64,000 nucleotides of DNA, taken from the IMG/VR virus record IMGVR_UViG_3300032116_000009. The stretch is one strand, 5' to 3'. A program made the position numbers and the translations under genes. Shown here in pieces: positions 1,536-23,021 of the stretch; position 1 is the first letter of the stretch, and every line of letters starts with the position of its first letter. The notes under the pieces were generated by a model that was not told the DNA's origin, searched no databases, and worked only from the letters and a program-made list of their open reading frames with translations. Origin of the DNA: a virus. Taxonomy: Duplodnaviria; Caudoviricetes.

Positions 1536-1726
1536 TATTTTAAATAGTTAGGTTTTTCAGTATCAAATGTCGTCCATTTTGCATCTTTCATTCTAAGACA
1601 CATTAACAAAGTTTGATGTTCACGATCATATAATTCCCAGTCTCCCTTACACTTGGCAAAATATCGTCTTCGATAGGCACAACACCAAACATTATAATAA
1701 ATTTTTGACTTCTCAGAAAGAGCCAT
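1535..1726 (-). CDS. hypothetical protein
   Basis: Overlapping start/stop with neighbours. Confidence 0.6.
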   Translation of the reverse strand: MALSEKSKIYYNVWCCAYRRRYFAKCKGDWELYDREHQTLLMCLRMKDAKWTTFDTEKPNYLK

Positions 1727-1967
1727 TTCCTAAACACTCAAAACAAACACTATTAAATTTACCTTCGACTCCACGAAGAATAAGTTTAGTGTGAGAAGAT
1801 TTTACAATCATTTTCTCAACATAATAAATTCCACCATAGATAAGAAGATTTTCTGGATCAGTATTATTACCCCACATAACTTGTTCTCGGGTGCATCCAG
1901 TAAATTTTACAAAGTCTCCTTCCTTGATTTCTCTAGAAATATATTTAATTTTTCGGAGGTCTTTCAT
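1713..1967 (-). CDS. hypothetical protein
   Basis: Operonic packing. Confidence 0.6.
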   Translation of the reverse strand: MKDLRKIKYISREIKEGDFVKFTGCTREQVMWGNNTDPENLLIYGGIYYVEKMIVKSSHTKLILRGVEGKFNSVCFECLGNGSF

Positions 1968-2239
1968 TTTACTACGGTTGTTTGAGTTTTGGGTTGTGTT
2001 TTTACTTTAGTCGGATCTTCATAGGGAACTTTACCATTTTTCTCATACATTAAAATGTCGTACTTAAATTTACATTCATGAGGCCTTTGATTACAGAGAA
2101 TCAAAGTGTCTTCTACAGAACGATAAGATCCAGTAGAAGATCCAATAGAACCACCAATTAAAATGGATAATCCGAAGATTCCAATGTTTTTAATGGTAAC
2201 AATACGATCAATCATGTTCAGAATATATGTTTCCCACAT
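1964..2239 (-). CDS. hypothetical membrane-anchored protein
   Basis: N-terminal hydrophobic segment; 4-nt overlap with next ORF. Confidence 0.6.
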   Translation of the reverse strand: MWETYILNMIDRIVTIKNIGIFGLSILIGGSIGSSTGSYRSVEDTLILCNQRPHECKFKYDILMYEKNGKVPYEDPTKVKTQPKTQTTVVK

Positions 2240-2273
2240 TCTACCACACTTTTGATTTTATGCAAGGTGGGTG

Positions 2274-2993
2274 TCAGTTGACTTTGGGCTTTCCAATCCA
2301 TCTAGCTTTCTTACCACTAGAAAAATTATATTCAAATATAGGTCGTGACTCTACATTTACTTCAATAAAAAACGCACAAACAACTCTAAGTTTATCAGAA
2401 GCTTTGAACGAATGCCATGTCACATCTTTTTCTGGACAAAATAAAATAGAAGAGTTTGGTTTCCACTCTACTATTTTTTGTACATCATCTTCAGATTCAA
2501 TAGAGTGTAGTATTGTTCCTATGTTATTTTCTGGTGAGAGATAAACTATAAAAGTTATAATTTTTCTACTAACATCATCATGCGGAGGAAACCAATTATA
2601 AGGAAAATCTAAGTTGATGTTTGCCTGAACAAAAACTTCTTGTTCTGGTGATGGTTTTCTACTATTAGGATACCTATCAAGGATAGACTTAGATAACTTT
2701 AAAAAATCTTGAGCAACATCAAATAATACTTCAACCACATCTTCGGACACTCCGCACTTAATTAAATCCAGAATATCAAGTACGGCTCCTCCAGGTGAAG
2801 TCCTAGCATCAAAAAATATCTTCTCCTTAAGAAAAGAATTTTTTTGAATATTTTCTTTAGTTAAAAGGAATCTTGGTATCGTCTTTAAAACTTCAAAAGA
2901 TTTTTGATCTATAGTTTGTTCTATGATCTGATGAGGCCAAGGTTCTTGTAATATTTGACCTCCAACAATAGGTTCCTCATTTAACAACATCAC
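2274..2993 (-). CDS. 2OG-Fe(II) oxygenase superfamily protein
   Basis: HxD (PPHDD), FIVYL strand, distal His (TWHSF) and Arg (LRVV). Confidence 0.85.
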   Translation of the reverse strand: MMLLNEEPIVGGQILQEPWPHQIIEQTIDQKSFEVLKTIPRFLLTKENIQKNSFLKEKIFFDARTSPGGAVLDILDLIKCGVSEDVVEVLFDVAQDFLKLSKSILDRYPNSRKPSPEQEVFVQANINLDFPYNWFPPHDDVSRKIITFIVYLSPENNIGTILHSIESEDDVQKIVEWKPNSSILFCPEKDVTWHSFKASDKLRVVCAFFIEVNVESRPIFEYNFSSGKKARWIGKPKVN

Positions 2994-3880
2994 TCTTCTC
3001 GTAGGTAGTCAAATGTCATACAATGTAGTCCCCCATCCCACAAATACCTATGCCTAAAGGGAACAATGATTGGTTCAACATTATGTTTTTCCAGAAACTC
3101 GAAAACTTGTTTGTTATATCTAGTAACCATTAGATGTTCTGAATCTAATTGAAGAGCATTAACATCAAAAAAAGTTTCTGGAGAATATCCTACCCAATCT
3201 TTATACTCATACGGAATTTGATTTGGGGACCAAACAAATTTATCTTTGGTCATATCCATAGCCTTAATGTCTTGAGTATTGTGTTCCAAGTACAAAATAT
3301 CCCACCCAGGAAAACAATGTTCCAAGTTACGACCTTGAGGTGTAGATATGATTACACCTTCTTTTACAACCACAAAGACTCCATCTGTGTGTCGTTCGAT
3401 ATTAAAATCCCTACAAGAAAATCTTTCATAAATACATTCCACTTCAGGATTTGCATTTTTAAAGTAATCGAATCTCTTTCTCGTCCATGCAACTGCATCA
3501 AAATAAACTCGATCAGCTCGGATAACACTAGGAGCACAAAGATTATCTAACGTAATATAGTTACTTCTATGATCTAACAACTCCAACCAATCAATGATAT
3601 TTTCTTCATATCTAGGACCAACATACAACTTATTATTAATATATTGTAGGTGATCTCTTGCATGTAGTAGTTGAGGTTTTTTTGTTACATCTGGATTTTT
3701 ATATGTCGGTCTTTTAACTACAACACCAAATGTTTCCAATACTTCTGAAAAGTTTTTTAGATCTTCTTCAGTTTCATCAAGAATTTCTTTGATAAAAGAA
3801 TCTTCAACGAGATCGGACGAGTAGGCCCTACCCACCCAACATTCTTTAAGTTTGTTATATTCTGGAAAATATTTACTCAT
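2990..3880 (-). CDS. amidinotransferase (glycine/inosamine-phosphate amidinotransferase-like)
   Basis: LKECWVG N-terminus, ARD motif, HTDG, C-terminal GGLHCMT with catalytic Cys. Confidence 0.85.
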   Translation of the reverse strand: MSKYFPEYNKLKECWVGRAYSSDLVEDSFIKEILDETEEDLKNFSEVLETFGVVVKRPTYKNPDVTKKPQLLHARDHLQYINNKLYVGPRYEENIIDWLELLDHRSNYITLDNLCAPSVIRADRVYFDAVAWTRKRFDYFKNANPEVECIYERFSCRDFNIERHTDGVFVVVKEGVIISTPQGRNLEHCFPGWDILYLEHNTQDIKAMDMTKDKFVWSPNQIPYEYKDWVGYSPETFFDVNALQLDSEHLMVTRYNKQVFEFLEKHNVEPIIVPFRHRYLWDGGLHCMTFDYLREE

Positions 3881-3914
3881 TGTGATATAATGTCTTTAGA
3901 AATTATAACATGAA

Positions 3915-4649
3915 ATGAAATTATTTGCAGGTCCTTGTGCTCTAGAATCCGGAGAGGTTTGTTTTGAAGTTGCAAAAACAATTTCAAAATACATCCCAAA
4001 ACACGTAGACTTTTACTTCAAAACTTCTTTCGAGAAAGCAAACAGATCAAGTCATAATAGTTTTACTGGAAAAGGTTATGGATACGCAATGGACGTATTC
4101 TCAGAACTCAGAACGTCTGGGTATAAAATTATCACTGACATACACTTACCAAATCAAGTAGATTTATTTCATGATTATGTAGATGCATTCCAAGTTCCAG
4201 CATTTTTGTGTAGACAGTCGGAACTATTAGAAGCTGTTGCAAAAAGTGGAAAACTAGTAAATGTAAAAAAAGGACAATTTATTTCTCCTAGAAATGCAAT
4301 TCTTCTTGGAGAAAAGATGGAATCGTATGGTTGTGAAGATTTTTATATTTGCGAAAGAGGAAGTTGTTTTGGATATGACAACTTAGTAGTAGACTTTAGA
4401 ACAATTGATATTCTTAAGAATGCAGGATTCAAAGTATGTTTTGATGCAACACACTCTACTCAGGAAGGAGGAGACTCTGTTACAAGTGGAAACTGGAAGT
4501 ATGCAGAAAAATTGTCCAAGAGTGCTCTCGTTTGGGGAACTGATGCACTGTTTGTAGAAGTGCATCCTAAGCCCTCTGAGGCACTCTCAGACAAGGATTG
4601 TCAGATTCCTTTATCAGAGTTTCCGAACTATCTCTCTAGCGTCTTCTAA
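3915..4649 (+). CDS. kdsA: 3-deoxy-D-manno-octulosonate 8-phosphate synthase
   Basis: AGPC, KTSFEKANRSS, PAFLCRQ, NVKKGQF, ERG..FGY..LVVD, FDATHS, EVHP..ALSD. Confidence 0.95.
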   Translation: MKLFAGPCALESGEVCFEVAKTISKYIPKHVDFYFKTSFEKANRSSHNSFTGKGYGYAMDVFSELRTSGYKIITDIHLPNQVDLFHDYVDAFQVPAFLCRQSELLEAVAKSGKLVNVKKGQFISPRNAILLGEKMESYGCEDFYICERGSCFGYDNLVVDFRTIDILKNAGFKVCFDATHSTQEGGDSVTSGNWKYAEKLSKSALVWGTDALFVEVHPKPSEALSDKDCQIPLSEFPNYLSSVF

Positions 4650-5315
4650 GTCTTCTGGGGTGTCTACAGAAAACACATCATGTTCTGTTTCATAAGAAAA
4701 AACAGAAACATCATTATCAAGAAACCGTAGTTGTTCCAACCTCTCAGTCTCTTCCAACTGGGAGGTTTTTAATTGACTAAAATTCTCTAAAAAATTTCTA
4801 GTGTATCCATATATTCCCATATGAATTTTTAGTTGATCAGTTCCAATAGGATGTCTACTAAAATATAGAACTTTTCCAGATTGACTAGTAACTAATTTTG
4901 GTTTATCTTGAGACTTTCCGTACTTACTATTTTTATCATATAGTTTATACGGAGTAACAACATCATAATTTTCTTTAAGGAGATGCTCATTCATTTCCAA
5001 AATAGCTTCTGGTGAAATGAATGGTTGATCACCTTGAACATTAATAATTTTTTCTCCAGGAATAGATGTCATCACATTAGAAATGCGTTCTGTTCCACTA
5101 GAGGCTTCGGCTTGTTGTAAGACTACTTTCACTTTAGTGTCTCTAACAGACTCATAAACTTCAAAACTATCTGTGATTACATAAGTTTCCAGACCAGTAA
5201 TCATACACTGGTTTACCACTCTCTGAATTAAGGTTTTACCTCCAATATCAGATAAAACTTTCTTCGGTAAACGAGAACTTTCAATTCTTGCAGGAATAAC
5301 AATAGTAGCGTTCAT
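4614..5315 (-). CDS. kdsB: CMP-Kdo synthetase (3-deoxy-manno-octulosonate cytidylyltransferase)
   Basis: IPARIESSRLPKK, SGTERI, NVQGDQP, LYFSR, H.GIYGY, LE..E.LEQLR, VDTPEDL. Confidence 0.95.
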   Translation of the reverse strand: MNATIVIPARIESSRLPKKVLSDIGGKTLIQRVVNQCMITGLETYVITDSFEVYESVRDTKVKVVLQQAEASSGTERISNVMTSIPGEKIINVQGDQPFISPEAILEMNEHLLKENYDVVTPYKLYDKNSKYGKSQDKPKLVTSQSGKVLYFSRHPIGTDQLKIHMGIYGYTRNFLENFSQLKTSQLEETERLEQLRFLDNDVSVFSYETEHDVFSVDTPEDLEDAREIVRKL

Positions 5316-8015: not shown

Positions 8016-9077
8016 TTAGAGTGCGTTTCCGCGAGGTAGAACTTCCTCTGGGAACACAAACTGTTCGTGAGGTTGATCTACTGGAGCCATCCAGGCACGT
8101 AGTCCTTCATTTAGAAGAATATTCTTCGTATAAAAGGTTTCAAACTCAGGGTCTTCTGCAGCCCTTACTTCCTGACTTACGAAATCATAAGCACGGAGAT
8201 TGAGAGCGAGACCAATAATGCCAATAGAAGATGTCCAGAGCCCCATAACAGGAACGAAAAGCATAAAGAAATGAAGCCAACGCTTATTGGAAAAAGCAAT
8301 ACCAAAGATCTGCGACCAGAAACGGTTAGCCGTGACCATAGAGTAAGTCTCTTCCTCTTGGGTAGGTTCAAATGCCTTAAAAGTGTTTGATTGTTCACCA
8401 TCTTCATAAAGTGTGTTTTCTACTGTTGCTCCGTGAATAGCACAGAGAAGTGCTCCACCCAGTATACCAGCAACTCCCATCATATGGAAGGGGTTGAGAG
8501 TCCAGTTGTGGAAACCCTGAAGAAACAGTAGGAAGCGGAAGATGGCAGCGACCCCAAAGGAGGGAGCAAAGAACCAACTGGATTGACCCAGTGGGTACAT
8601 CAGGAAGACGCTGACGAATACAGCGATAGGACCAGAGAATGCGATTGCATTATAAGGACGAATGCCCACTAGACGAGAGATCTCAAACTGACGCAACATG
8701 AAACCTATAAGAGCGAAGGCTCCGTGGAGCGCCACAAAAGGCCAGAGTCCCCCAAGTTGGAACCACCTGACGATATCTCCTTGAGCCTCAGGGCCCCAGA
8801 GAAGAAGAAGAGAATGACCCATAGCATCTGCTGGAGTACTAACTGCCGCAGTAAGAAAGTTTGCACCCTCAAGATAGGAGGATGCAAGGCCATGAGTGTA
8901 CCAACTCGTAACGAAAGTTGTCCCAGTAAGCCAACCACCAAGAGCAAGATAAGCTGTGGGAAAAAGAAGAAGTCCAGACCAGCCAACAAAAACGAAACGG
9001 TCTCTTTTAAGCCAGTCATCGAGTACATCGAACCATCCCCGTTGTGAAATAGGTTGTGAAAGTGTTGAAGAAGTCAT
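8016..9077 (-). CDS. psbD: photosystem II D2 protein
   Basis: [22 protein letters not shown] ... [10 protein letters not shown]; uninterrupted. Confidence 0.99.
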
Positions 9078-9319: not shown

Positions 9320-10402
9320 TCAACCAATCGCAGGTGCGGTGAGAGCAACAGGAGTGTTCTCAGCAGCAGCAAGATCGAGAGGGAAGTTGTGAGCGTTACG
9401 CTCGTGCATCACTTCCATGCCCAGACCAGCACGATTGAGCACATCTGCCCAAGTGTTGATCACTTTACCTTGACCATCAACGATGGACTGGTTGAAGTTG
9501 AAACCGTTGAGGTTGAACGCCATCGTAGATACGCCCAGGGCAGTAAACCAGATACCGACAACAGGCCAAGCAGCAAGGAAGAAGTGTAGCGAACGAGAGT
9601 TATTGAAGGAAGCATATTGGAAGATCAGTCGTCCGAAGTATCCGTGAGCGGCAACGATGTTGTAGGTCTCTTCTTCTTGTCCGAACTTGTAACCATAGTT
9701 CTGAGACTCTTGCTCTGTCGTCTCGCGGACAAGGGAAGACGTAACCAGACTTCCGTGCATAGCACTAAACAGAGAGCCACCAAATACCCCAGCAACCCCA
9801 AGCATGTGGAACGGATGCATAAGGATATTGTGTTCTGCTTGGAAGACGAGCATGTAGTTAAACGTACCCGAGATTCCGAGAGGCATTGCGTCAGAGAAGG
9901 AACCTTGACCGAAAGGATAAACAAGGAACACCGCAGAAGCAGCAGCAACAGGAGCAGAGTAAGCAACGCAAATCCAGGGACGCATACCAAGACGGTAAGA
10001 AAGTTCCCATTCACGACCCATGTAAGCATAGATACCAATCAGAAAGTGGAAGACGACCAGTTGGAATGGTCCACCGTTGTAAAGCCACTCATCTAGGGAA
10101 GCAGCTTCCCAGATGGGATAAAAGTGCAGTCCAATAGCATTGGACGAAGGAATTACAGCACCAGAGATGATGTTGTTTCCGTACATGAGTGAACCAGCAA
10201 CGGGTTCACGGATACCATCAATGTCCACTGGGGGAGCACCGATGAATGCGATGATGAAACAAGTTGTAGCAGCAAGTAGGCAAGGAATCATGAGGACTCC
10301 AAACCAACCGACATAAAGACGGTTATCGGTTGATGTAACCCAATTGCAAAACTGTTCCCAAATATTCGATTGTGATTGTTGACGTGAAAGTGTAGCAGTC
10401 AT
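9320..10402 (-). CDS. psbA: photosystem II D1 protein (360 aa; start moved to MTATLS)
   Basis: [32 protein letters not shown]; no intron. Confidence 0.99.
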
Positions 10403-10419
10403 TGTTTTTTTTAAAAATA

Positions 10420-10525
10420 GTAGGACCATCAGGGAAATGGTGGTGATACTATGTTCCCGCCACCCTCAGGCAGGATATGAGAGACGTTTTTATACTCCCC
10501 ATAGGTCTCGGTTAGTGGGAGTTCG
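10420..10525 (-). ncRNA. structured psbA 5' leader, likely PhotoRC-II-type motif
   Basis: GAGAC/GTCTC and further helices in the psbA 5' UTR; position matches the motif described for cyanophage psbA; identity from recall only. Confidence 0.5.
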
Positions 10526-10562
10526 ACAATGTTACGAGAACTTTTGGTTTCGTAACATTTGT

Positions 10563-11381
10563 TTACCTATTTATCATACTACGGGTTCCCATGGGTGTCA
10601 AGGGCCTTGGGCCCCAATCAACGTTGTCATCCATTACATACTCAACATTGTCCAAAACCAACCTATCCAAAAGATTTTGATAGTCACTAAAAGTCAAACA
10701 CTTTGTAGTCATTATAACAGGATACATTCTTTTCCAAAGATCAAAATCATTTTCCCTTAAAGTCAAAAAAACTCCTGGTTCTGGTTTATCTTTTAACTCT
10801 AGTTTCTTATATTCTTCATAGGCTATTTCAATGCCAATAATTCTCTGAATATCTTTCCTATAAAAATCTAAAAACAAAGTAGAATTACTCAGATCAATAT
10901 CTTTCCAACTATCATTATTGACGATATCACTAACCAAATCCGAAAGATTATGGTTCGATTCTGGGTCATCTTTAGTTCTATTAAAAATTACATCAACTTT
11001 TTTGTCTGGGAAGTAATTAGAAATTATTAAAACTCTACCTGCACCAGAACATATATGAGTTAAATTTACGTCGGAAACAATAGGAAATCTAAAAGATTGT
11101 TCCGTTAAAAGGGCTTTATATAGATGAGGCAACTTTGTAAAATTACTTATCTTACAATGTTTGCAGGATTCCTCAAAAGTTTTATAAGGTCCATACTTTA
11201 TTTTTAAGACTAATTTTATAAAATCACACAGATAATCCTCAGTAAAAATCTGAGGAACGTTTATAGATTTTTTGTAGACATAAGAAATCTGGATATCTTT
11301 TGGATCTATTTCTCGATACTTAGAAATAGCCCAATAACTAGGATCACAATATTTCTCGTAACATAAAATATTTTTTATCAT
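10563..11381 (-). CDS. unknown protein, paralogue 1 of local family (possible ParB/Srx-like core)
   Basis: FTKLPHLY..FPIV..SGAGRVLI..YFPD..WKDIDLSN shared with neighbours. Confidence 0.8.
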   Translation of the reverse strand: MIKNILCYEKYCDPSYWAISKYREIDPKDIQISYVYKKSINVPQIFTEDYLCDFIKLVLKIKYGPYKTFEESCKHCKISNFTKLPHLYKALLTEQSFRFPIVSDVNLTHICSGAGRVLIISNYFPDKKVDVIFNRTKDDPESNHNLSDLVSDIVNNDSWKDIDLSNSTLFLDFYRKDIQRIIGIEIAYEEYKKLELKDKPEPGVFLTLRENDFDLWKRMYPVIMTTKCLTFSDYQNLLDRLVLDNVEYVMDDNVDWGPRPLTPMGTRSMINR

Positions 11382-12247
11382 ATTAAAACTTCAGTCTCCG
11401 AAATTATATTATCTAATAATTTTAGATAATCTTTTTCTTCATTAAGATTAGAATTAATTATTAATTCATAAATTGTTTTCCAGACAATATCCTTAGATAA
11501 AATCTTATCATAAAAATTTTTGTTATTTTTATTAAATTCTATACCTTCAATGTAGTAAATATCTTTCATCTTACCAAACATTTTGGCATGGCCACGTTGA
11601 AGTTCTTTTCCTATAATTATATCTACATAATCAAATTCAATATTTGATTTCAGTTGAATGTGATTACAGAGATCTTCAATTGTGTTAAAACAAATATCTC
11701 CTCTTGATTTCCCGTTAACTTTATCACTTATGGCATAGTCTACTCTAATATCTGGAAAATATAAATGACCCAATAATGCCCTAGAAACTCCAGTTATTTG
11801 ATATAGTTTTATATTATCATTTAAATCATAAACAGATGTCATTAAAAAAGGCATCATAAATTTACCAAAATTTTTAAGATCTCGATAAAGATATGGTAAT
11901 GTCATCAAAAAAGATCTCATAAAACCCGTCTTATCGGTGATACAAGTTTCATGAGGAAATCTAGTAGGCACAATATAATTGGAACCCATAGAATACTGCA
12001 TAGTTTGTTCGAAGTATTCAGATATTCCATATTTTTCTGAATTACTTTTCACATCATTTATATCGGTAACAAAAGTATTCCACGATCTATTAAAAACTAT
12101 TGGAGAAATCTTAACGTTTTCTATGTAGTTTACTCGGATTTCTCTATTTGATATCTCTTCAAGATGTTCTTCTATGTCAGGATCAATATCATCAAATATT
12201 TTGTTCTTAGAGCTATCATTAAATTGATAATAATAATTGATATTCAT
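11378..12247 (-). CDS. unknown protein, divergent paralogue 2
   Basis: LPYLYRDL..FMMPF..TGVSRALL..YFPD. Confidence 0.75.
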   Translation of the reverse strand: MNINYYYQFNDSSKNKIFDDIDPDIEEHLEEISNREIRVNYIENVKISPIVFNRSWNTFVTDINDVKSNSEKYGISEYFEQTMQYSMGSNYIVPTRFPHETCITDKTGFMRSFLMTLPYLYRDLKNFGKFMMPFLMTSVYDLNDNIKLYQITGVSRALLGHLYFPDIRVDYAISDKVNGKSRGDICFNTIEDLCNHIQLKSNIEFDYVDIIIGKELQRGHAKMFGKMKDIYYIEGIEFNKNNKNFYDKILSKDIVWKTIYELIINSNLNEEKDYLKLLDNIISETEVLI

Positions 12248-13053
12248 TTAAATTTCCAAGTATATAATTTTTTAGTTAGAGAAAGATTATCAAAAATTAT
12301 TTGATCCAATAAAACTACAAGATCATTGTAGTTATTGACATCAAAATTGATAATGGATTCTTTAATACTATTCCAAAGTTCTATGTTTGCACTTTTTTCA
12401 ATAAAAGATTCGGGTATTCTAGCTTTATAATTATTGAAATAATCTTCGTCAGTAATGTCTATTGATTTAATATAATACAAATCCTGAAAATTTTCAATAG
12501 TCATAATAATAACTTTGTTGGATAAATCAAAATCTTTCCAATATCGATTTTCTAAAACTGAATCTATAAACCTATGACAAATTTCTTCAGACCCTACCCC
12601 GTAATCTGAAGAATGAACTGAGATATCAAATTCAAATTCTGGAAAATATCTATATGCAATAAGTGCTCTACCATGTCCACCAGCTTGTAATTGATTCTTA
12701 GATCTCAAAGTATGTGGAGTGTAGATGAATGGGTACATGTAAGACTTATGTTCGATCAAATCCAAGTAAAGGTATCCCAACTTTGTGAATATATCAAAAT
12801 ATATTGGCTCAAAAATTCCAGGGGGACCACCATATGGAACTCCATTTACATATTCTTTTTCATAAGAAGAATCAACATATGTCTTTTTCACATCCAAAAC
12901 ATCACTCATAAAGACTTTGAGAGATTCATTAAACCTGTCCTCAACAATCTTTTGGTTTCTACGATATTCAAAATTCATTACCTTTAATGGATTTGTTTTA
13001 GAAAAAAACAATCTCTCACCGGTAACGTCATCAAAATATTTTATATCATACAT
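12244..13053 (-). CDS. unknown protein, paralogue 3
   Basis: MYDIKYFDD..FTKLGYLYLDL..MYPF..GGHGRAL..YFPE..KKLYTWK. Confidence 0.85.
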   Translation of the reverse strand: MYDIKYFDDVTGERLFFSKTNPLKVMNFEYRRNQKIVEDRFNESLKVFMSDVLDVKKTYVDSSYEKEYVNGVPYGGPPGIFEPIYFDIFTKLGYLYLDLIEHKSYMYPFIYTPHTLRSKNQLQAGGHGRALIAYRYFPEFEFDISVHSSDYGVGSEEICHRFIDSVLENRYWKDFDLSNKVIIMTIENFQDLYYIKSIDITDEDYFNNYKARIPESFIEKSANIELWNSIKESIINFDVNNYNDLVVLLDQIIFDNLSLTKKLYTWKFK

Positions 13054-13056
13054 AAC

Positions 13057-13851
13057 TCATTTCCATGTATAAAGTTTTTTAGCAAGAGGTAGAGTATCAA
13101 ATATTACGTGGTCAAGTATTTCAAAAAATCCATCAATATTATTTTGAAGTTTATAATTAATGATCACATCTTTCATGCGGTGCCATATTTCTATCTTACA
13201 AGAGTTTTCCAGAAAATAATCTGGTCTAATATTCTGAAACGTTTGATAGTAATTATCGTCTACGAATTCTATAGACTTAATAAAAAATAAATCTCTATCA
13301 TTCAATTTATAGTCTTCAACATTTTCAATATTGAGAATTATTGTTTTATCCGAAATATCAATATTTTTCCAATATGTTCCGTTCTTAACTTTGTCCACAA
13401 AATCTTGCATTAATTCTTCCGACCCTATCCCAAAACTGGTTGAGTTAACAACGAAATCAAAAGTTTTCTCTGGAAAATATCTCCAGGCCAATAATGATCT
13501 ACCATGACCAGATTTAATAACATCATCGTTTAGAACGATAGGATACATAAAACTCTTCTCAAGAAGAAGATCCAGATACAAATAAACTAATTTAGTAAAT
13601 CTATCAAAGTAAACTTTATTTTGTCGTTGACCTTCTAATCTTTCGATATATGAAATCTCACTACAAAATGGTCCATCCATATCCCTACACTCTAAGACAT
13701 CCTCCATAAAAACTCTGAGGCCATCTTTATACATTTCCTTTGTTATTTTTTCACTTTCTCTATATTCAAATCCCATTATTTGTAAAGGATTTTCTTCCGT
13801 AAATATTAATTCCTCTCCCGACTGATCATGAAAATATTTTATATCATACAT
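13057..13851 (-). CDS. unknown protein, paralogue 4 (start moved to MYDIKYFHD)
   Basis: FTKLVYLYLDL..MYPIV..SGHGRSL..YFPE..KKLYTWK; ATG overlaps the GT8 stop region. Confidence 0.85.
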   Translation of the reverse strand: MYDIKYFHDQSGEELIFTEENPLQIMGFEYRESEKITKEMYKDGLRVFMEDVLECRDMDGPFCSEISYIERLEGQRQNKVYFDRFTKLVYLYLDLLLEKSFMYPIVLNDDVIKSGHGRSLLAWRYFPEKTFDFVVNSTSFGIGSEELMQDFVDKVKNGTYWKNIDISDKTIILNIENVEDYKLNDRDLFFIKSIEFVDDNYYQTFQNIRPDYFLENSCKIEIWHRMKDVIINYKLQNNIDGFFEILDHVIFDTLPLAKKLYTWK

Positions 13852-14515
13852 TTGACATCTCTCCAAAATATTTTTTCCAAATTTCAGAATACTCACAATC
13901 TCTATAATTTTCAAACCAAGGACCACCCTCAGTATAATGTAATGCTTTTGGATTACCCTCCTTATACCAACCAACTAACCAATTCCATTCCAAAGGCAAC
14001 TCCCCAATCTCATCATCTTTTAGCCAAGTAAATCTATGCAGTTCTTGAGGAGATAACTTATTAACGGTTTCTACATTTAGATTTTTATTGGATGGATGAT
14101 TACAGTTCCACAAAATAAGAGAACTCCAGTTCTTTCTGGGATAATTCACTTGCAATTGTCCATCCATTTTAATTTTATTTATTGGGTTGTATTCGTGTTT
14201 GACAACTAAAACTGCATACTTATCGTCTCTGAATTTAAACAGTTCTTCTATATCAGATAGCCATAAAAAATCACAATCACAAAAAACAGACCAACCAGAA
14301 TAATTAGATAAGTGTGGAGTTAAAAATCTTGTATATGAAAATTCAGTTGAGGATGGCTCATCAAAAGGTCTATAATAACAACCAGATGATCTTAAATCCG
14401 ATTGTATTAAAGGTATAACTTCTACCTTAGATTGATGTTTTATAAGACTATATTTACAAACCTGATATGCAACATCTTCTCTAGAATCATATCCAATAAA
14501 AACTTTCATTACCAA
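13844..14515 (-). CDS. GT-A fold glycosyltransferase (GT8-like)
   Basis: VFIGYD, STEFSYTRF, DCD (DxD), KNWSS, HYT.GGPW. Confidence 0.85.
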   Translation of the reverse strand: MVMKVFIGYDSREDVAYQVCKYSLIKHQSKVEVIPLIQSDLRSSGCYYRPFDEPSSTEFSYTRFLTPHLSNYSGWSVFCDCDFLWLSDIEELFKFRDDKYAVLVVKHEYNPINKIKMDGQLQVNYPRKNWSSLILWNCNHPSNKNLNVETVNKLSPQELHRFTWLKDDEIGELPLEWNWLVGWYKEGNPKALHYTEGGPWFENYRDCEYSEIWKKYFGEMSNV

Positions 14516-14553
14516 TAATCAATCTATATAATTTAATTATTCTATTATTTAAC

Positions 14554-15357
14554 ATGTATGATATAAGGTATTTTGATGATGATAGAGGAAATGAAATAGA
14601 ATTGCCGTCAAAGATAATGAGATTTAAAACTGAATCTCAAAGAGTATTGCCAAGTAATATTTTAATAGACTCCTATAAATCCTTCAAAGATAATATGCAA
14701 CAAGCGATAGAAGATTATGAGACATTCTTTAATACCGATGAGTATGAAGATAGAACAAATGAAAAGTTTTCTATAAAAATACAAAAATTTACAAAATTAG
14801 TTTACTTGTACTTGGACTATTGTGAAGATGATTGTTTTATGTATCCTTTTATTCTTGTGAAAGATCCTACAACCACAAATGAAGACAAATGGATTTCAAT
14901 GGCAGGTCAAGGTCGAATACTAATTAAATGGAAATATTTCCCAAAATCTTTTAGTGATGTATCATATCATTCTATTGATTATGGAATAGGATCAGATGAT
15001 GTAATAAAAGAATATATTGATTATGTTAAAAACACAAAATTTTGGAAAGACAAAGATATCTCAGATAAAACTATAAGGATAACATTTGAAAAATTTAATG
15101 CAAGAGAAAAAATTTATAATATAAAACATTTAGAATTTGCACCTAAAGAATACTACAATAACTATAGAATGCAAAGACCAGATTATTTTTTAGAGAATGT
15201 TTGTGATTTGGAAATATCAAAAAACATAAAAAATCTTTTCTTAAATTCTGGGATACAAAAAGATTCTCCAGCTTCAGATTATATACAACTACTAGATGAC
15301 TTTATTAAAACAAGCACGAATATTGCTAAAAGAAAATATACCTGGAAAATGACATAA
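14554..15357 (+). CDS. unknown protein, paralogue 5 (inverted orientation)
   Basis: MYDIRYFDD..FTKLVYLYLD..MYPF..AGQGRIL..YFPK..KRKYTWK. Confidence 0.85.
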   Translation: MYDIRYFDDDRGNEIELPSKIMRFKTESQRVLPSNILIDSYKSFKDNMQQAIEDYETFFNTDEYEDRTNEKFSIKIQKFTKLVYLYLDYCEDDCFMYPFILVKDPTTTNEDKWISMAGQGRILIKWKYFPKSFSDVSYHSIDYGIGSDDVIKEYIDYVKNTKFWKDKDISDKTIRITFEKFNAREKIYNIKHLEFAPKEYYNNYRMQRPDYFLENVCDLEISKNIKNLFLNSGIQKDSPASDYIQLLDDFIKTSTNIAKRKYTWKMT

Positions 15358-15388
15358 AAAAAGAGAGGAGAATTCTCCTCTCTAAAAT
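15356..15388. terminator. bidirectional hairpin between convergent genes
   Basis: GAGAGGAG-AATT-CTCCTCTC flanked by A-rich runs. Confidence 0.7.
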
Positions 15389-15389
15389 A

Positions 15390-15923
15390 TCAGACTACTA
15401 CAGGAGTCTTTGATTTTACATATGAAAGAACTTTGTCTGGAGTAGAATATTCATATGGATCGGTATCCGCATTATCTCGTTTACCATCTTCCATAAACAA
15501 CTGTTCAATTACTCCGTCATTAATGACAGCAGCGTATCTCCAAGAACGTAGGGCAAATCCCAAATTACGTTTTTGAACTAACATGTCCATGCCTTGAGTG
15601 AATTCACCATTACCATCTGGAATCAGTTTAACTTTCTCGATTCCTTGATCTTTGGCCCATGCATTCATTACAAATGCATCATTAACGGAAAGACAATACA
15701 CTTCGTCAATACCAGCTTCAATAAATTCAGAGTAGTTTTCCTCAAATCCAGGAAGTTGATATGCACTGCATGTAGGAGTAAATGCACCAGGAAGTGCGAA
15801 CAACACTACTTTTTTTCCACCGAAGAGTTCTTCAGTAGATCGAGTTACAAATTCACCATTTTCGCGGAACATGAAGTTCACAGATGGAATATTTACGATT
15901 TCTTCAGGAATTAGTTGGGGCAT
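15390..15923 (-). CDS. peroxiredoxin (Prx5/redoxin family; start moved to MPQLIPEE)
   Basis: PGAFTPTCS, SVNDAFVM.AW, PDGNGEF, RSWRYA. Confidence 0.95.
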   Translation of the reverse strand: MPQLIPEEIVNIPSVNFMFRENGEFVTRSTEELFGGKKVVLFALPGAFTPTCSAYQLPGFEENYSEFIEAGIDEVYCLSVNDAFVMNAWAKDQGIEKVKLIPDGNGEFTQGMDMLVQKRNLGFALRSWRYAAVINDGVIEQLFMEDGKRDNADTDPYEYSTPDKVLSYVKSKTPVVV

Positions 15924-16188
15924 GATTATAAGGGTGTTTTTGTTTAAGTTCAGGATTTGGTTGTGAAGGAACAACTGGGTTCCTTGATTTGTTTTTAATT
16001 ACAATAAATGCATCATTTTGATAGGATACAGTTCCAAAGGGTTTTGCCCATTTTGGATTTGCATCTGGGTGAGTAGCAGTTCCTGTGACTGCAACTCCGC
16101 CAATCTCTACAGAGATTTCATCATCAGCAGTCCATTCTAATTTTTGAAGAGCAATGGAGAGTTGCCCCAACCAGTCAGCACTTCTCAC
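15904..16188 (-). CDS. conserved hypothetical protein
   Basis: Overlaps petF stop and the peroxiredoxin start. Confidence 0.7.
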
Positions 16189-16478
16189 AGATTCTCTTCC
16201 TGTTCAGTCAGAATCACACAATCGCTGGTGGGGTATGCAACACAAGTGAGTACCCAACCCTCAGCAATCTGATCATCATCAAGAAACGATTGTTCCTCGT
16301 TATCTACAGTTCCACTAATCAGTTTGCCAGCACAAGCAGAGCAAGCACCTGCTTTACAAGAAGAAGGAAGGTCTACACCTGCTTCTTCAGCAGCTTCAAG
16401 AATGTATTGGTCATCAGGACACTGAATAACAGTTTCGGTGCCATCAGGAGATTGGAGAGTAACGTTATAAATTGTCAT
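16185..16478 (-). CDS. petF: plant-type 2Fe-2S ferredoxin
   Basis: [13 protein letters not shown]...VLTCVAYP. Confidence 0.97.
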
Positions 16479-17229: not shown

Positions 17230-18699
17230 TCAGAACTTAAAAGTAGTCTGAATCACACCACCCCAGTTAGAGGAGTTGTCGGCAAGACGTTGGTTATCAC
17301 TTCCGTAGATGATTGCAGGAGTGACACTGATGTTATCCGAGACTTGATACTTGTAGAAGATTTCAAGCATCGTTGATTTCTCAAGGTTCTCACCAGTAGG
17401 TGCCTGACCGATAGCAACACCAGCGGAATTACCACCAACAAACACATCTTCCCACTGAAGACCAGCAAACCAAGACTGGCTATCAGTAGCATCGCTAGGA
17501 GTACCACTTACAGTATTCCATCCATAACCAGCGGAAATAGAAGGAACAATACCCGATTTCTGAGGTTGCCAGTAAGCGTTCAGAGCATAACCATTAGAGG
17601 TTTGACCAGGAACCAGAGTACCAGAAGCACCATTCAGACCGTTATAGGTGCGAACACGAGTTCCTTCAGTACCATAACGGTAACCAAATGCAGCACCCCA
17701 GTTAGTACCACGATAACCAATTTGTGCAAGAGTATTCAGAGCACCAGTCTCATCAAATACTCCAGTCTCACTATCGTTACCACTTTGAGCAACGTAGTTT
17801 ACACCAGCAATAAGACCTTTCTTACCATACTGAGCACCGAAACCAGCACCAGTTGCTTTGTTATAAACACCAGGAGTACCAGCAACAGCAAAGAAGTCAA
17901 GAATACCAGACTTATAAGCAGAAGGCATCCAAGCAATCTCAGTGTTACGAACTGCGGCACCTGCAGTCAGAGTTGCTTTGTTATTAAAAGCAGGGAATGA
18001 ATAATACAGACGATCGATAACTACATTGTTACCAACTTCACTGGTAGTGTTGTCTGCTTTATCCAGTTTGAACAGAGAAGAACTAGAACCGAAAGGATCG
18101 CCACTGAAGTTGGATGAGCGCAGACGGGTACGGAGCAGATCCTTACCAGTAAATGAAGTATCCAGATTCAGGCGAAGATCGTAGTTGAATGCGGTGCGGG
18201 TTGTATCACCACCTTTGGTACGATAGTCATCAACACCACCAAGAACAAAGTTTGCTTCACCACGAAGTTTAGTAGTAGTAGAGAATTGAGTTGCCCCAAG
18301 AGAACCAACCACTCGTTCTAGTCCATCTACACGACCTTGAAGAACGGTCAGTTCATCACGGAACTCATTAGCAAGACGCTTGAGTTCATCAGTTTGTTCA
18401 GTTACACGGTCAAGACAGGCATTCAGAAGTGCGGCTGCTTCATAACGAGTCATTGCACGGCCACCACCAAAGGTTCCGTTTGCATAACCAGCAACACAAC
18501 CATAACGTTCTACAAGGTTGCTGAGTGCTTGATATGCCCAATCAGTGGGTTGCACGTCAGAGAGTTGTTTGATGCTTGAGACTTGTTCCGAGGAAGTATA
18601 CTGGTTGACTGCTGCCATATTGAGGTCTGCGGCATTCGCAGCAACAGGAGCAACCATACCCAGAGCAACGGGTGCAAGCATCAGTTGTTTGAGTTTCAT
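17230..18699 (-). CDS. cyanobacterial outer-membrane porin (SLH domain + OprB-type barrel, SomA/iron-uptake-porin-like)
   Basis: Signal peptide, SDVQPTDWAYQAL..LVERYGCVAGY, TRYEAAALLNACL, FSTTTKL.GE, C-terminal TTFKF. Confidence 0.95.
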   Translation of the reverse strand: MKLKQLMLAPVALGMVAPVAANAADLNMAAVNQYTSSEQVSSIKQLSDVQPTDWAYQALSNLVERYGCVAGYANGTFGGGRAMTRYEAAALLNACLDRVTEQTDELKRLANEFRDELTVLQGRVDGLERVVGSLGATQFSTTTKLRGEANFVLGGVDDYRTKGGDTTRTAFNYDLRLNLDTSFTGKDLLRTRLRSSNFSGDPFGSSSSLFKLDKADNTTSEVGNNVVIDRLYYSFPAFNNKATLTAGAAVRNTEIAWMPSAYKSGILDFFAVAGTPGVYNKATGAGFGAQYGKKGLIAGVNYVAQSGNDSETGVFDETGALNTLAQIGYRGTNWGAAFGYRYGTEGTRVRTYNGLNGASGTLVPGQTSNGYALNAYWQPQKSGIVPSISAGYGWNTVSGTPSDATDSQSWFAGLQWEDVFVGGNSAGVAIGQAPTGENLEKSTMLEIFYKYQVSDNISVTPAIIYGSDNQRLADNSSNWGGVIQTTFKF

Positions 18700-18799: not shown

Positions 18800-19597
18800 T
18801 TATGGAGTTGGTTGTTGAGCTTCTGAAGTTCTTCCTAGATATGGATCATAATCCATCAATCTATCCAATTCCAAATCAGAACCTCTAGTTTTCCACAAAT
18901 CAGTCAATCCATTATGACTTCCCCTGTGGAATATTTCAATATGTTCTGGATGAATAGAAGAACCCAGTTCAATTTTATAAAGAAAAATTGGAATAGAAAA
19001 TGTATTACCTGAGTTATAAATTAAATCATCAGCAACAGCTCTAGGTTTAATTTGATAATCAAGTTTATACTTATCTCCACGGCAGTGGAACCTTACGATT
19101 TTTTCCGCATGATGACGAGTAATCATGTAGCAAGCGGTTGAAAAATCATTTACAAATCTTTTGTGTAGATTTACATGCAGAGTTCCTGGACAAATGATAG
19201 CAAGTTGAACTACATCATAATCATACGGAACTCTAGCAAAAAATTGACTCCAAGTAAAACTCCAATGATGGACTGTACTTAGATCGATGTCATCTTCCAT
19301 GACAACACAATATGGGGAATCAGAATTTTCAAGAAAATGTTTGAGTATTTTAAGATGAGATGTTACGCAACCGATTTCTCCAGAACTCATATTTTCTGGA
19401 TAACGGCCATGAATGATGTCACTTAGATCATCATCTCTACCATCGTATGCAGAGATTCTCTCATAGTTTTCAATTTCCCAATACTTAAATTGATCCTCCA
19501 TGTACTCTTTTCTATCTGGTTGACCATCAAGATTCAAGTAATAGACAGGTCCAATTCCCTTAAGTTTGTAAGCAGCTTTATTCTTGTCCAAAGTCAT
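18800..19597 (-). CDS. glycosyltransferase family 25-like
   Basis: YYLNLD..PDR, ISAYDG, GEIGC..SH, MEDD. Confidence 0.9.
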   Translation of the reverse strand: MTLDKNKAAYKLKGIGPVYYLNLDGQPDRKEYMEDQFKYWEIENYERISAYDGRDDDLSDIIHGRYPENMSSGEIGCVTSHLKILKHFLENSDSPYCVVMEDDIDLSTVHHWSFTWSQFFARVPYDYDVVQLAIICPGTLHVNLHKRFVNDFSTACYMITRHHAEKIVRFHCRGDKYKLDYQIKPRAVADDLIYNSGNTFSIPIFLYKIELGSSIHPEHIEIFHRGSHNGLTDLWKTRGSDLELDRLMDYDPYLGRTSEAQQPTP

Positions 19598-19605
19598 TGT
19601 TCAAA

Positions 19606-20460
19606 TCACATTACAATCCAGTTTTCAGGATAAAGATCTTTAGTATCTTTATCGGAATATGCAGGTCCAAACCAATTCTTGGGAGCAACTACTTTACCGG
19701 ACCCGTTTTGCAACCAAGCGCCCCACCAAGACAGTGTTGAGTTAGCGGTGATTCCACCCTTACAGTTAGCCATAATACAAAGGTCAACATAAGGAGTATA
19801 GGATCCATCTGGATATTTTTCTTCAGGAGTAGAAACATAGAATCTATCTGGTTTAAAGAGTTCTTGTTCCATAACCCACTCCGGAGAATCCGAGACAACA
19901 ACAACTTCTTGATCATCTGGGAAAAGTTTTAGAGCTTCTTCATAATATTCCAGAGTTTGTGGAGGATGCATAGAAGAACATTCGGTATAAGCCCACTTAA
20001 ATCCTCTAGCATCAACCAAATTAGGATCACCACGACGAACGTGTAGGAAAATAGGATCTTTAAGTTCTGAAAGAAATCCCGTAACTGGTTCTAAAAGATC
20101 ATCATGGAACGTAAAGTCTTTACGAATATCTTGTTCAATGTGTTTGAAATACTTTTCAGACTGAAAGAATCCATGAATAGAGACATCATTTGGACAAAGT
20201 TGTAGAAGTTCTTCATCAAAATGGAAATGTTTTTCCATGACGATAGGAGCGAATCCACGATCCAAAATATAAAGGTTTGTGGATTTCACACTATCAAGAG
20301 TAAAACAATTAGCTAAACTATAATTATCAACCCTTGGTACTTTATATGGAGGAATACACCAATCATATCCTTTATTAGCAGCTATACCACGAAGAGCTGC
20401 ATATTGAAACATTTGGTTCCCTAGACGACCAATGTTACCCAATTCATTAAACGCTAACAT
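19606..20460 (-). CDS. GT11 alpha-1,2-fucosyltransferase-like
   Basis: GRLGNQMFQYA, GFFQSEKYF, HVRRGD, NSTLSWWGAWL. Confidence 0.92.
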   Translation of the reverse strand: MLAFNELGNIGRLGNQMFQYAALRGIAANKGYDWCIPPYKVPRVDNYSLANCFTLDSVKSTNLYILDRGFAPIVMEKHFHFDEELLQLCPNDVSIHGFFQSEKYFKHIEQDIRKDFTFHDDLLEPVTGFLSELKDPIFLHVRRGDPNLVDARGFKWAYTECSSMHPPQTLEYYEEALKLFPDDQEVVVVSDSPEWVMEQELFKPDRFYVSTPEEKYPDGSYTPYVDLCIMANCKGGITANSTLSWWGAWLQNGSGKVVAPKNWFGPAYSDKDTKDLYPENWIVM

Positions 20461-21268
20461 CTAATTGTTTCCTCCTTTCTGCGATATAAGATTGTTGTTG
20501 ATAATAAGAGAATAGTTTTTGAGAATCCCAAGTTCTAATGTTTTGCCAAAGATTATGATTATCCATAAATTTGGGATTGTGATAATGTGAATTAAAAGTT
20601 CTACCATGTTCAAAGTGGTAGACATCTCTATTTACTCTGCCAACTTTTCGACCAAATGCATTTAGTCTATAGTAAAATTCACAATCTTCTGCACCCCAAG
20701 AAATAAAATTTTCATTCCAGAATCCAATTTCAATCTCAGTTTGTCGTTTAATCATTTGACCCCAACCAATGGAAGAAGCAACTCTAAATTTAGATTCTTC
20801 CAAAACACTAAAATCAAAATTAGAATCTAAAAATTGATTGAAAGTATTTTCAGAATAGTTTACAGCCCACTGATAAACACCACACCCAAATGGATATACT
20901 GCATCTGCAGTTCCATCTTTGATGTATGCATATGCAATTTCGTAACTAGATTTTGGTAATACAATATCTACATCATGATTATAAACGATCTCAGTCTCAG
21001 AAGCAACTAAAAGATCGTTGAGAATTCTAGTTTTATGGAAAAACTTATCATCATTCTCTTCAAAGATATGTGTTAAATTATCAACTGCAACATACTTTTT
21101 AATTACAGGTAGAGCCCTGAACTTAAAATGAGAATGTGTATCGACTTCTTTTATAATTACTTTGGACTCTGGGAAATTTTTTAAGAGATAAGTAACGGAA
21201 GTAATTACATTTTTTAGTCTATCTTCAGACTCAATTCTACATGGTAGAAGAAATGTTAAATCTTTCAT
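20447..21268 (-). CDS. GT2/GT7-like glycosyltransferase
   Basis: DVD (DxD), ENFISWGAEDCEF..R, YHFEH. Confidence 0.85.
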   Translation of the reverse strand: MKDLTFLLPCRIESEDRLKNVITSVTYLLKNFPESKVIIKEVDTHSHFKFRALPVIKKYVAVDNLTHIFEENDDKFFHKTRILNDLLVASETEIVYNHDVDIVLPKSSYEIAYAYIKDGTADAVYPFGCGVYQWAVNYSENTFNQFLDSNFDFSVLEESKFRVASSIGWGQMIKRQTEIEIGFWNENFISWGAEDCEFYYRLNAFGRKVGRVNRDVYHFEHGRTFNSHYHNPKFMDNHNLWQNIRTWDSQKLFSYYQQQSYIAERRKQLDVSV

Positions 21269-22161
21269 GATTCAGCGGGTATTGGAGATGGATCGTTGTG
21301 AATTTTGATCCACCTTTCAGGGATCATGTCTTTCATATTGTAATGAGCGTAAGCAGGCCCAAACCAAGGATCTGGAGCAACGACTTTACCAGAATCTCCT
21401 TGTAACCAAGCTCCCCACCAACTCAGAGAAGAATTAGCAATAATTGCACCTCCACATAGACTCATGAGGCAGAGATCGATGTAGGGGACGGCCGCACCAT
21501 CTCCGAAGGTTTCATAGGAAGAGTCGGAGAAGTGGAACCTATCTCCCTGCAACCAAGATTGACGTTTACACCAATCAATAAGATCTGAAACAACAATCAC
21601 ATTCTTGTCTTCTGGAAACTCTTTTAAGGCTTGAATATAATAATCTTCTTTACAGAGTGGGTGATATTCCTGCACCATTTGATAAGACCACTTCTCACCT
21701 CTCCTACCAGTGAGATTGGGAGAACCACGGCGAACATGAAGAAAAATACAGTTATCTCTTCCACCAAGGCTGTCAACAAATTCTTGACAAGGTTCTAAGT
21801 AGTCTTTTTTGAAAACAAAATCTTCACGAATAGATGAAGCAATTGACTCAAAGTATTTTTCTGTTTGAAAATTACCAGAAAAATTTGTATTATCTTCACA
21901 ATTATTGAAGATCTCTTCATTGAAGTGCATGTCCCTATACTCTACAGTTCTGTAGAAGGGTTCTCCAGTATTCTTACTTAGATCACAATTAGTAAGTTCA
22001 AAGGCATCAAACAACCCATAATTGTCTAAACGATCTGCGTCTGGAGGTGGAATAATCCAATCAAATCCACGATTGGAAGCAAGTCCACGAATAAATGCGT
22101 ATTGAAACATTTGATTTCCGAGGCGCCCCTCATTACCAAGTCCTTTAAATGATACAGCCAT
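21265..22161 (-). CDS. GT11 alpha-1,2-fucosyltransferase-like
   Basis: GRLGNQMFQYA, HVRRG, ANSSLSWWGAWL. Confidence 0.92.
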   Translation of the reverse strand: MAVSFKGLGNEGRLGNQMFQYAFIRGLASNRGFDWIIPPPDADRLDNYGLFDAFELTNCDLSKNTGEPFYRTVEYRDMHFNEEIFNNCEDNTNFSGNFQTEKYFESIASSIREDFVFKKDYLEPCQEFVDSLGGRDNCIFLHVRRGSPNLTGRRGEKWSYQMVQEYHPLCKEDYYIQALKEFPEDKNVIVVSDLIDWCKRQSWLQGDRFHFSDSSYETFGDGAAVPYIDLCLMSLCGGAIIANSSLSWWGAWLQGDSGKVVAPDPWFGPAYAHYNMKDMIPERWIKIHNDPSPIPAES

Positions 22162-23021
22162 TACTTACTCCACTCTTGAATAATCCAACGATCAGGAACA
22201 ATGTCCGAAGTATCTAGGTGAGTCATTGCAGTACCAAACCATTTCTTAGGATCTGGAGCAATTACTTTACCTCGATCATTTTGCAACCATGCTCCCCACC
22301 AGGAGAACGATGAGTTTGCAATGATAGCACCAGAACAAAGACTCATCAGACACAGATCAACCTGCGGTAGAAGAGTGTTTTGCATTTTTCCAGTACCATC
22401 AATAGTACGATATGTATATCTACCATTACTATCATTAAACAAGAAACGATCTTGTTTAAAAAATTCTTGAGACTTACACCACTCCATATCGTCAGTAAAA
22501 ACGAAACAAGGAGTGTCCTCAGGAAATTCTTTCAACGCATCTTCAAAAAATTGTATCGGGAGGATGGGATGATACTGTTCTCTTCCGATATTATCACTCT
22601 GGCGAATATGAAGGAAAATAGGGCTAGAAGGTAAACTATCAATATACTCCTGGCAAGGAGTGAGATAGTCTTCTCTAAATGTGAAATCTTCACGGATTTC
22701 TTTTGCGATGTGACTGAAATATTTTTCAGTTTGGAAATATCCATCAAGACTCACATTGTCTGGACATTCTTCAAAAAACTCTGGAATAAAACAGTGATCA
22801 TTCTCTTGTATGTATTCACCATTAACAAATCCAATGTTGGATTCATTAACATTTGTCAATTTAAATGTTTCAAAGAGACCATAATTATCTTTATGATCAT
22901 AAGTATCTGGAGGAATAACCCAGTCGTATCCTCGTTTTGCAGCAATACCTCTGAGTGCTGCATATTGGAACATCTGATTTCCTAGACGCCCGTTACTTCC
23001 TAGCCTATTATATCCAATCAT
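22161..23021 (-). CDS. GT11 alpha-1,2-fucosyltransferase-like
   Basis: GRLGNQMFQYA, GYFQTEKYF, HIR, ANSSFSWWGAWL. Confidence 0.92.
   Translation of the reverse strand: MIGYNRLGSNGRLGNQMFQYAALRGIAAKRGYDWVIPPDTYDHKDNYGLFETFKLTNVNESNIGFVNGEYIQENDHCFIPEFFEECPDNVSLDGYFQTEKYFSHIAKEIREDFTFREDYLTPCQEYIDSLPSSPIFLHIRQSDNIGREQYHPILPIQFFEDALKEFPEDTPCFVFTDDMEWCKSQEFFKQDRFLFNDSNGRYTYRTIDGTGKMQNTLLPQVDLCLMSLCSGAIIANSSFSWWGAWLQNDRGKVIAPDPKKWFGTAMTHLDTSDIVPDRWIIQEWSK

Follow-up and report, generated by a model that had tools for sequence, protein, structure and literature searches.

The 64,000-nucleotide stretch of caudoviricete DNA catalogued as IMG/VR record IMGVR_UViG_3300032116_000009 (referred to here, in its whole length, as the window) carries between positions 10563 and 15357 five paralogous genes whose products belong to an unannotated, phage-restricted protein family, together with a gene for a GT8/GT24-like glycosyltransferase. 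Across related phages, the family is co-operonic with such a glycosyltransferase inside islands of glycan and metabolite tailoring genes, and substitution ratios between orthologs indicate purifying selection. Structural models and profile alignments place a divergent relative of the ParB/sulfiredoxin (Srx) domain at the core of these proteins. We tentatively propose, with somewhat less than even confidence, that the paralogs are nucleoside triphosphate (NTP)-dependent tailoring enzymes, probably phosphotransferases, which would work alongside the glycosyltransferase on a glycan or small-molecule precursor. The fold itself is known, and the family goes undetected by the standard ParB model; what is new is the detail of its architecture, its tandem multi-subfamily arrays and its association with a glycosyltransferase and glycan islands.

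The array and its glycosyltransferase gene

A preliminary description of this region listed five proteins of 264-289 amino acids (aa) lying upstream of psbA with one copy inverted, and all five are indeed present as open reading frames in that arrangement. On the minus strand the order is glycosyltransferase, paralogs 4, 3, 2 and 1, and then psbA. The glycosyltransferase gene (13844-14515, minus strand, 223 aa) is followed by paralog 4 (13057-13851, minus strand, motif KSGHGR), which comprises 264 aa when its MYDIKYF methionine at 13851 is taken as the start, the open reading frame having been listed from a TTG at 13974; read from this start, the gene shares 8 bp with the end of the glycosyltransferase gene. 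Paralog 3 (12244-13053, minus strand, 269 aa, motif AGGHGR), a recent duplicate of paralog 4, is the copy that was modeled (P0001). Paralog 2 (11378-12247, minus strand, 289 aa, motif ITGVSR) is the most divergent copy and has orthologs in the metagenomic arrays L009, L010 and L012. The last gene of the array, directly upstream of psbA, is paralog 1 (10563-11381, minus strand, 272 aa, motif CSGAGR), an ortholog of ORF263 of the cultured Synechococcus phage S-SCSM2R. The junctions along this strand are either overlaps of 8, 4 and 4 bp or a 3-bp gap, and the glycosyltransferase and paralogs 4 to 1 therefore constitute one operon, of which the glycosyltransferase is the first gene. The inverted copy, paralog 5 (14554-15357, plus strand, 267 aa, motif MAGQGR), is divergent from the glycosyltransferase gene, with about 40 bp between them.

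The paralogs are homologous rather than alike by chance, since even the most distant pairs are linked by BLASTP E values of 1e-14 and 7e-15. In a MAFFT alignment the other four copies are 46, 35, 27 and 23% identical to the copy at 12244, and 19 columns are invariant across all five, including L92, L95, Y96, P108, G126, R129, Y136-F137-P138 and D143. The motifs quoted in the preliminary description could all be found again, with WK(D/N)xD(L/I)S present in four of the five copies and MYDI(K/R)YF and YTWK each in three.

The protein at the head of the operon, for which the ATG at 14509 is the more likely start, matches phrog_28018 (E 3e-55), a PHROG without a functional name. Against the Pfam GT8 model PF01501 it scores 15.1 bits (E 0.018) and its ortholog in locus L002 18.5 bits (E 0.0016), neither of which reaches the gathering score of 24.3 bits. 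Its D80-C-D82 (DxD) and C-terminal H193-Y-T-x-G-G-P-W200 motifs (the latter HYTEGGPW in the window) are invariant in four orthologs, and we take DxD and H-x-x-G-x-x-x-P-W-type motifs to be marks of GT8 and retaining GT-A enzymes; homologs elsewhere are annotated as GT24, galT-like or nucleotide-diphospho-sugar transferase. Co-folding of the glycosyltransferase with the inverted paralog 5 returned a score of 0.00, which gives no verdict and was not used.

Downstream of paralog 5, a perfect 22-nt palindrome, AGAGAGGAGAATTCTCCTCTCT (15362-15383), forms a GC-rich hairpin between this gene and a convergent peroxiredoxin gene and looks like a terminator that could serve both. In a scan for promoters and terminators it alone is notable; promoter-like sites are not enriched in the sequence (37 versus 33 ± 5 after shuffling). 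A freshwater metatranscriptome (run X20, depth 2.5-5) holds exact-match contigs over 13674-13857, 14617-14797 and 10379-10633, which touch paralog 4, paralog 5 and the paralog 1-psbA junction; DNA carry-over is possible, and these contigs hint weakly at transcription of the array in nature, perhaps with read-through into psbA. The array is mostly without cover in two RNA runs, which has no bearing on its expression.

A predicted ParB/sulfiredoxin-type core

The pattern of a proline followed by G-x-x-R in these proteins had been likened to the nucleotide-binding motif of ParB and Srx, and models and profile alignments agree on this point, with GxGR in the place of the GERR of ParB and the GCHR of Srx. 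An AlphaFold2 model of paralog 3, computed from a 49-sequence family alignment, reached a predicted local distance difference test (pLDDT) score of 92.1 and a predicted template modeling (pTM) score of 0.90, and a second model of residues 24-205 alone reached pLDDT 91.5. The modeled core starts with a strand (28-34), two helices (38-58 and 63-69) and a long helix (85-102) that bears the TKLPYLY motif; it continues with a strand after P108, a strand at 123-125, a helix starting at G126-x-G128-R129 and a strand with D143, and it ends with one more helix and a long beta-hairpin (180-202), beyond which lies a small helical domain (203-269). The models contain the strand-strand-helix-strand core with G-x-x-R at the junction between the second strand and the helix: DSSP assigns strands to 109-111, 123-125 and 142-147 and a helix to 127-136, with G126-x-G128-R129 at the helix start. 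K91 and Y96 sit on the helix preceding the P108 strand. The most conserved polar positions of the family are K91, Y96, D98, G126, G128, R129, Y136, D143, W172, E199, W227, D244 and D250, and the loop between P108 and G126 is a candidate specificity element because its length varies greatly between subfamilies.

The models resemble solved members of the ParB/Srx superfamily in structure. In the Foldseek comparison that had been suggested for AlphaFold models, lists drawn from the PDB, BFVD and AFDB clusters were enriched in ParB-like entries, dominated by ParB, Noc and Spo0J, and nothing was found at E <= 0.001, making this a supporting pattern only. The ESM Atlas had a poor model of its own (pLDDT 0.32) with uninformative neighbors, and the family profile had no real match among PDB sequences. 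Pfam PF02195 (ParB_N) recognized none of the 49 members at E <= 1 and nothing in three related phage records at E <= 10.

For evidence that does not depend on the models, 26 ParB_N domains were pulled from cyanobacterial genomes with PF02195 and compared with the family by hhalign. The family core aligned with all 26 domains over 96 columns (P = 1e-3) and with a nine-sequence subset over 105 columns (P = 1.9e-4). This subset derives mostly from cyanobacterial proteins of about 420-510 aa, which we presume to be methyltransferase fusions, the fused domain being unchecked. In the alignment P108 falls on the 'PilV' proline and G126-x-G-R129 on the ParB G-x-x-R. Column-shuffled controls (30 per set) gave a best P of 0.13 and reversed ones 0.08-0.24. 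We conclude that the family core is a very divergent ParB/Srx domain, as had been suspected, with the motifs in the correct register and below the reach of the Pfam ParB_N model.

Sulfiredoxin is among the best structural matches, and this raises the question of whether the paralogs might be Srx-like repair enzymes for the adjacent peroxiredoxin (15390-15974, minus strand), whose gene is convergent with that of paralog 5 and whose counterpart in S-SCSM2R also lies near the glycosyltransferase, two genes upstream of it. Furthermore, Srx is known among bacteria in cyanobacteria alone (PMC12704722). Nevertheless, we regard a repair function as highly improbable. The position of the catalytic Cys in GCHR is occupied by Cys in only 2 of the 49 family members, His being the commonest residue there (about 10/49); hhalign detected no similarity between the family and two cyanobacterial sulfiredoxins (FSGCHR, P 0.49); and the arrays L004, L010 and L012 have no neighboring peroxiredoxin. 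The family proteins are also about 2.5 times larger than sulfiredoxin (PDB 6ky4, 1yzs) and carry an extra C-terminal domain. Sulfiredoxin identity was ruled out on the missing catalytic Cys and the failure of the profile to align with cyanobacterial Srx.

ParB-like domains are frequent where phages encode DNA modification or nucleases, and the weak matches include GmrSD/BrxU, SspE and Osa. Both observations would suit paralogs directed at DNA, whether as nucleases, partition or silencing factors or partners of DNA modification, with a glycosyltransferase that would glycosylate DNA bases; in a similar vein, the authors who described S-SCSM2R raise DNA protection as a speculative role for its many glycosyltransferases (PMC12801897). 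Such a role seems improbable to us. The proteins are acidic, with a median pI of 5.6 for the whole chain and 4.8 for the C-terminal domain, which argues against DNA binding; helix-turn-helix (HTH), HNH and methyltransferase domains are absent from the family; and no hydroxymethylase or base-modifying genes lie nearby, the neighbors being sugar-nucleotide and lipopolysaccharide (LPS)-type enzymes.

The family shares its profile register with the N-terminal CTPase domain of ParB (PF02195) and lacks an ENLQR-type motif. Unlike the canonical ParB clamps (ParB, Noc, KorB, VirB), it has no HTH, C-terminal dimerization domain, ParA or parS: a Pfam scan found no HTH_ParB or ParB_C match among the members, and the 64-kb window contains no ParB_N-bearing gene. 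A DNA-clamp identity was rejected given the lack of an HTH or dimerization domain, the acidity of the proteins and the absence of ParA.

Another, well-conserved ParB/Srx-type family occurs in the same group of large cyanomyoviruses, namely a 'ParB-like CTPase' of about 108 aa (alignment A3; L001 3927-4265, which is S-SCSM2R ORF34) with an invariant EDGVHR and no Pfam match. These proteins differ from the paralogs in being single-domain and single-copy with a classical DGxHR motif, they are absent from the window, and hhalign detected no similarity between the two families.

Distribution, gene context and evolution of the family

The family is as little known as the preliminary description supposed. 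None of Pfam, PHROGs, NCBIfam or PADLOC offers a meaningful match to the paralogs, and we found no description of the family in the literature on ParB, sulfiredoxin, glycosyltransferases or cyanophages. When 1.84 billion representative proteins were searched with the family profile, 60 clusters were returned, of which 41 had E <= 1e-10; a word-indexed search of 5.8 billion proteins returned three. Among 50,697 phage records S-SCSM2R, which infects Synechococcus WH7803, is the sole carrier and the one cultured phage with the family; its five copies (ORF40, ORF262, ORF263, ORF268 and ORF270) are hypothetical proteins in the paper that describes it (PMC12801897). No credible match was found in any of 301 sampled cyanobacterial genomes. 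Some members are longer (351-407 aa), with N-terminal extensions that have no Pfam match; their contigs are short.

The link to a GT8-like gene, already pointed out in the window, recurs in seven distinct phage contexts, always in the order of a glycosyltransferase followed by one to seven family copies. In the window four copies lie downstream and one is inverted. The related loci L002 and L003 have six and seven copies, all downstream, and a glycogen-type phosphorylase gene before the glycosyltransferase; L004-L006 have five copies downstream and one inverted; S-SCSM2R (L007, 200814-219479) has two directly downstream of the glycosyltransferase; L010/L011 have three, with a GNAT acetyltransferase gene between; and L013 has one. 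The preliminary description spoke of copies surrounding the glycosyltransferase. This holds for the window but is a lineage-specific arrangement, the copies of other phages lying downstream on one strand, although L004-L006 are themselves listed with an inverted copy. The arrays of L009 and L012 are on short contigs in which no glycosyltransferase is visible.

The remaining copies of S-SCSM2R lie among other tailoring genes. Two (ORF268 and ORF270) are interleaved with two 2-oxoglutarate (2OG)-Fe(II) oxygenase genes downstream of the glycine amidinotransferase ORF266 and near KdsA/KdsB, and the fifth is beside a SPASM protein, an aminotransferase and another oxygenase, far from the glycosyltransferase. 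The virion proteome of S-SCSM2R includes the amidinotransferase ORF266 and the oxygenase ORF269, as well as one unnamed protein with no known function (PMC12801897).

The window holds an island of comparable content, with genes for KdsA, KdsB, GT25, three GT11 enzymes, GT2, GT10 and UDP-glucose dehydrogenase, along with sugar epimerases, dehydratases, methyltransferases, radical-SAM/SPASM proteins and NAD synthase. It is very large, occupying 18800-29066 and 311-5315, and is syntenic with S-SCSM2R and several metagenomic contigs.

Two further features of these neighborhoods deserve mention. A full-length glycogen-type carbohydrate phosphorylase (Pfam Phosphorylase, about 1040 bits) is encoded immediately upstream of the GT8/24-like gene in L002 (6136-8526), L003 (5343-7784) and L007 (6629-9004) and is absent from the corresponding place in the window. 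In L010 (8748-9287 and 10850-12174), the GNAT gene lies inside the array, and between the array and psbA come a Peptidase_C39_2 gene and a phage lysozyme gene.

A maximum-likelihood tree of 41 sequences assigns most copies to well-supported subfamilies, each with members from different phages. Paralog 1 groups with S-SCSM2R ORF263 (support 100/99), paralog 2 with the members from L009, L010 and L012 (100/99), and paralog 5 with the glycosyltransferase-adjacent copies of L002, L003 and L004 (83/84, and 96/98 in a smaller tree). Four of the five window copies have orthologs in other phages, and paralogs 3 and 4 are the only lineage-specific duplication in the window. Five ortholog pairs between L002 and L003 have a dN/dS ratio of 0.10-0.16, and that of the glycosyltransferase is similarly low (0.12); a sixth pair, which is more diverged, gives 0.30. 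Given subfamilies that cross phages and such low ratios, the array is an old and maintained set of distinct genes rather than a recent amplification or a collection of decaying copies. The idea that one orthologous subfamily always adjoins the glycosyltransferase was also considered; it holds in four contexts and fails in S-SCSM2R, L010 and L013.

This history bears on whether the array could consist of host-takeover or anti-defense effectors that diverged in the course of an arms race, for instance by binding or degrading host nucleotide signals or by modifying host proteins, with the glycosyltransferase adjacent only through a shared hypervariable island. We consider this quite unlikely. The orthologous subfamilies are old and under purifying selection instead of turning over rapidly, in seven contexts the operon begins with the glycosyltransferase gene and its stop and start codons overlap, and the paralogs have no PADLOC or PHROG match. 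The earlier suggestion of a modification or anti-defense system was not borne out. No defense-related model matches, and the sugar and metabolite tailoring neighborhood favors glycan or metabolite tailoring over DNA modification or anti-defense.

Possible function and the phage background

The ParB-CTPase fold is a versatile NTP-binding module employed well beyond chromosome segregation, and SerK, SbnI and Srx use it as an ATP/ADP-binding catalytic module (PMC12704722; PMC5120207). Nucleotide specificity within the fold is reportedly predicted poorly by sequence or by AlphaFold 3 (PMC12704722). The survey that drew this picture relied on Pfam PF02195 (PMC12704722), a model that misses the family, and it could therefore not have found the paralogs. 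Judged by the models, the closest analogues in overall plan are the free-serine kinases SerK (Thermococcus kodakarensis TK0378, PDB 5x0b, 241 aa) and SbnI (Staphylococcus, PDB 5ujd, 254 aa), which also combine a ParB/Srx N-terminal domain with a helical C-terminal domain and resemble the family in chain length (240-290 aa). Among the acidic residues conserved in the family are D98, D143 and E199. The family differs from them in having no detectable sequence similarity to either, in its extra helices (residues 38-69) and beta-hairpin (180-202), and in being phage-encoded, linked to a glycosyltransferase and present in 5-7 paralogs per genome, whereas SerK and SbnI belong to amino-acid metabolism.

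From the known chemistry of these stand-alone members, each paralog would be expected to bind a nucleoside tri- or diphosphate at the pocket formed by GxGR and K91, and could then transfer a phosphoryl (or nucleotidyl) group to its own sugar, glycan or small-molecule acceptor, with the variable loop before GxGR presumably setting acceptor specificity. Sharing a pathway with the glycosyltransferase, the paralogs would help the phage to modify the glycan on the surface of the host cell, or possibly a virion glycan.

Several observations weigh against this proposal. The motif Arg is replaced in about 8 of the 49 members, and some copies may therefore not bind nucleotide. The family motif is [ST]GxGR, in which the Asp that precedes the motif in the DGxxR of SerK, SbnI and DndB-type proteins is not conserved. 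Nor do we know of any ParB/Srx-fold enzyme that acts on sugars. Finally, the coupling between glycosyltransferase and family is not obligatory, because pelagiphage Mosig and Caulobacter jumbo phages have homologs of the glycosyltransferase but lack the family, and one copy in S-SCSM2R is distant from the glycosyltransferase.

Catalysis is not the only use to which such a domain could be put, as nucleotide-dependent switching is the best-known role of the ParB-CTPase fold, whose different orphan homologs bind CTP, ATP or GTP (PMC12704722). The paralogs could thus be non-catalytic, NTP-gated switches or adaptors in which nucleotide closes or dimerizes the domain, as in ParB clamps, and which would regulate the glycosyltransferase or other island enzymes or target them to different substrates. 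The glycosyltransferase is far more conserved than its companions, its orthologs at the head of other phages' arrays being 55-57% identical while the paralogs typically share 20-35%, and this would fit one catalytic subunit with variable partners. On balance we find switches or adaptors unlikely, as the family has neither an HTH nor a dimerization domain, lacks the third ParB motif (ENLQR-type) that is used for CTP hydrolysis, and has copies away from the glycosyltransferase.

If the paralogs are instead tailoring enzymes, a wider view opens, of which we are more doubtful: they could represent a new enzyme class in large cyanomyoviruses, a ParB/Srx-fold family of phosphotransferases or nucleotidyltransferases with several old subfamilies, which would cooperate with one conserved GT8/24-like glycosyltransferase to make a variable phospho-glycan or modified sugar on the surface of the infected cell or on the virion. 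Were this true, chemistry directed at sugars or glycans would be a first for the ParB-CTPase fold, extending it to carbohydrate or metabolite tailoring through a phage-only branch with 5-7 selected subfamilies per genome, always within glycan-tailoring islands. The 'cell-wall modification' islands of big cyanophages are thought to change host surfaces, receptor availability and grazing, and the family would offer a handle on these large and unexplained regions. With five copies in the cultured S-SCSM2R on Synechococcus WH7803, the hypothesis is directly testable.

The window itself derives from a T4-like cyanomyovirus of large size. Directly downstream of the array are psbA (9320-10429, minus strand) and then psbD (8016-9077, minus strand); on the other side, beyond the peroxiredoxin gene, lie petF (16185-16478, minus strand) and a full-length SLH/OprB porin gene (17230-18699, minus strand). 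The array stretch is AT-rich, with a GC content of 0.29-0.33 against 0.47 for psbA/psbD. The porin is 48-49% identical to those of Cyanobium and of Prochlorococcaceae metagenome-assembled genomes, its nearest genomic relatives, and because of this kinship and the occurrence of the array sequence in lake and freshwater metagenomes we take the source to be a phage of freshwater picocyanobacteria. The sole cultured relative with the family, S-SCSM2R, is marine. At least 19 freshwater or lake metagenome runs, dated 2017-2025 and drawn from many studies, contain the exact DNA of 10555-15969; contigs of 5.1-5.4 kb show zero differences across the whole array, some of the runs possibly being the source of the window. 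Given identical DNA in so many runs, this freshwater cyanophage appears both widespread and stable.

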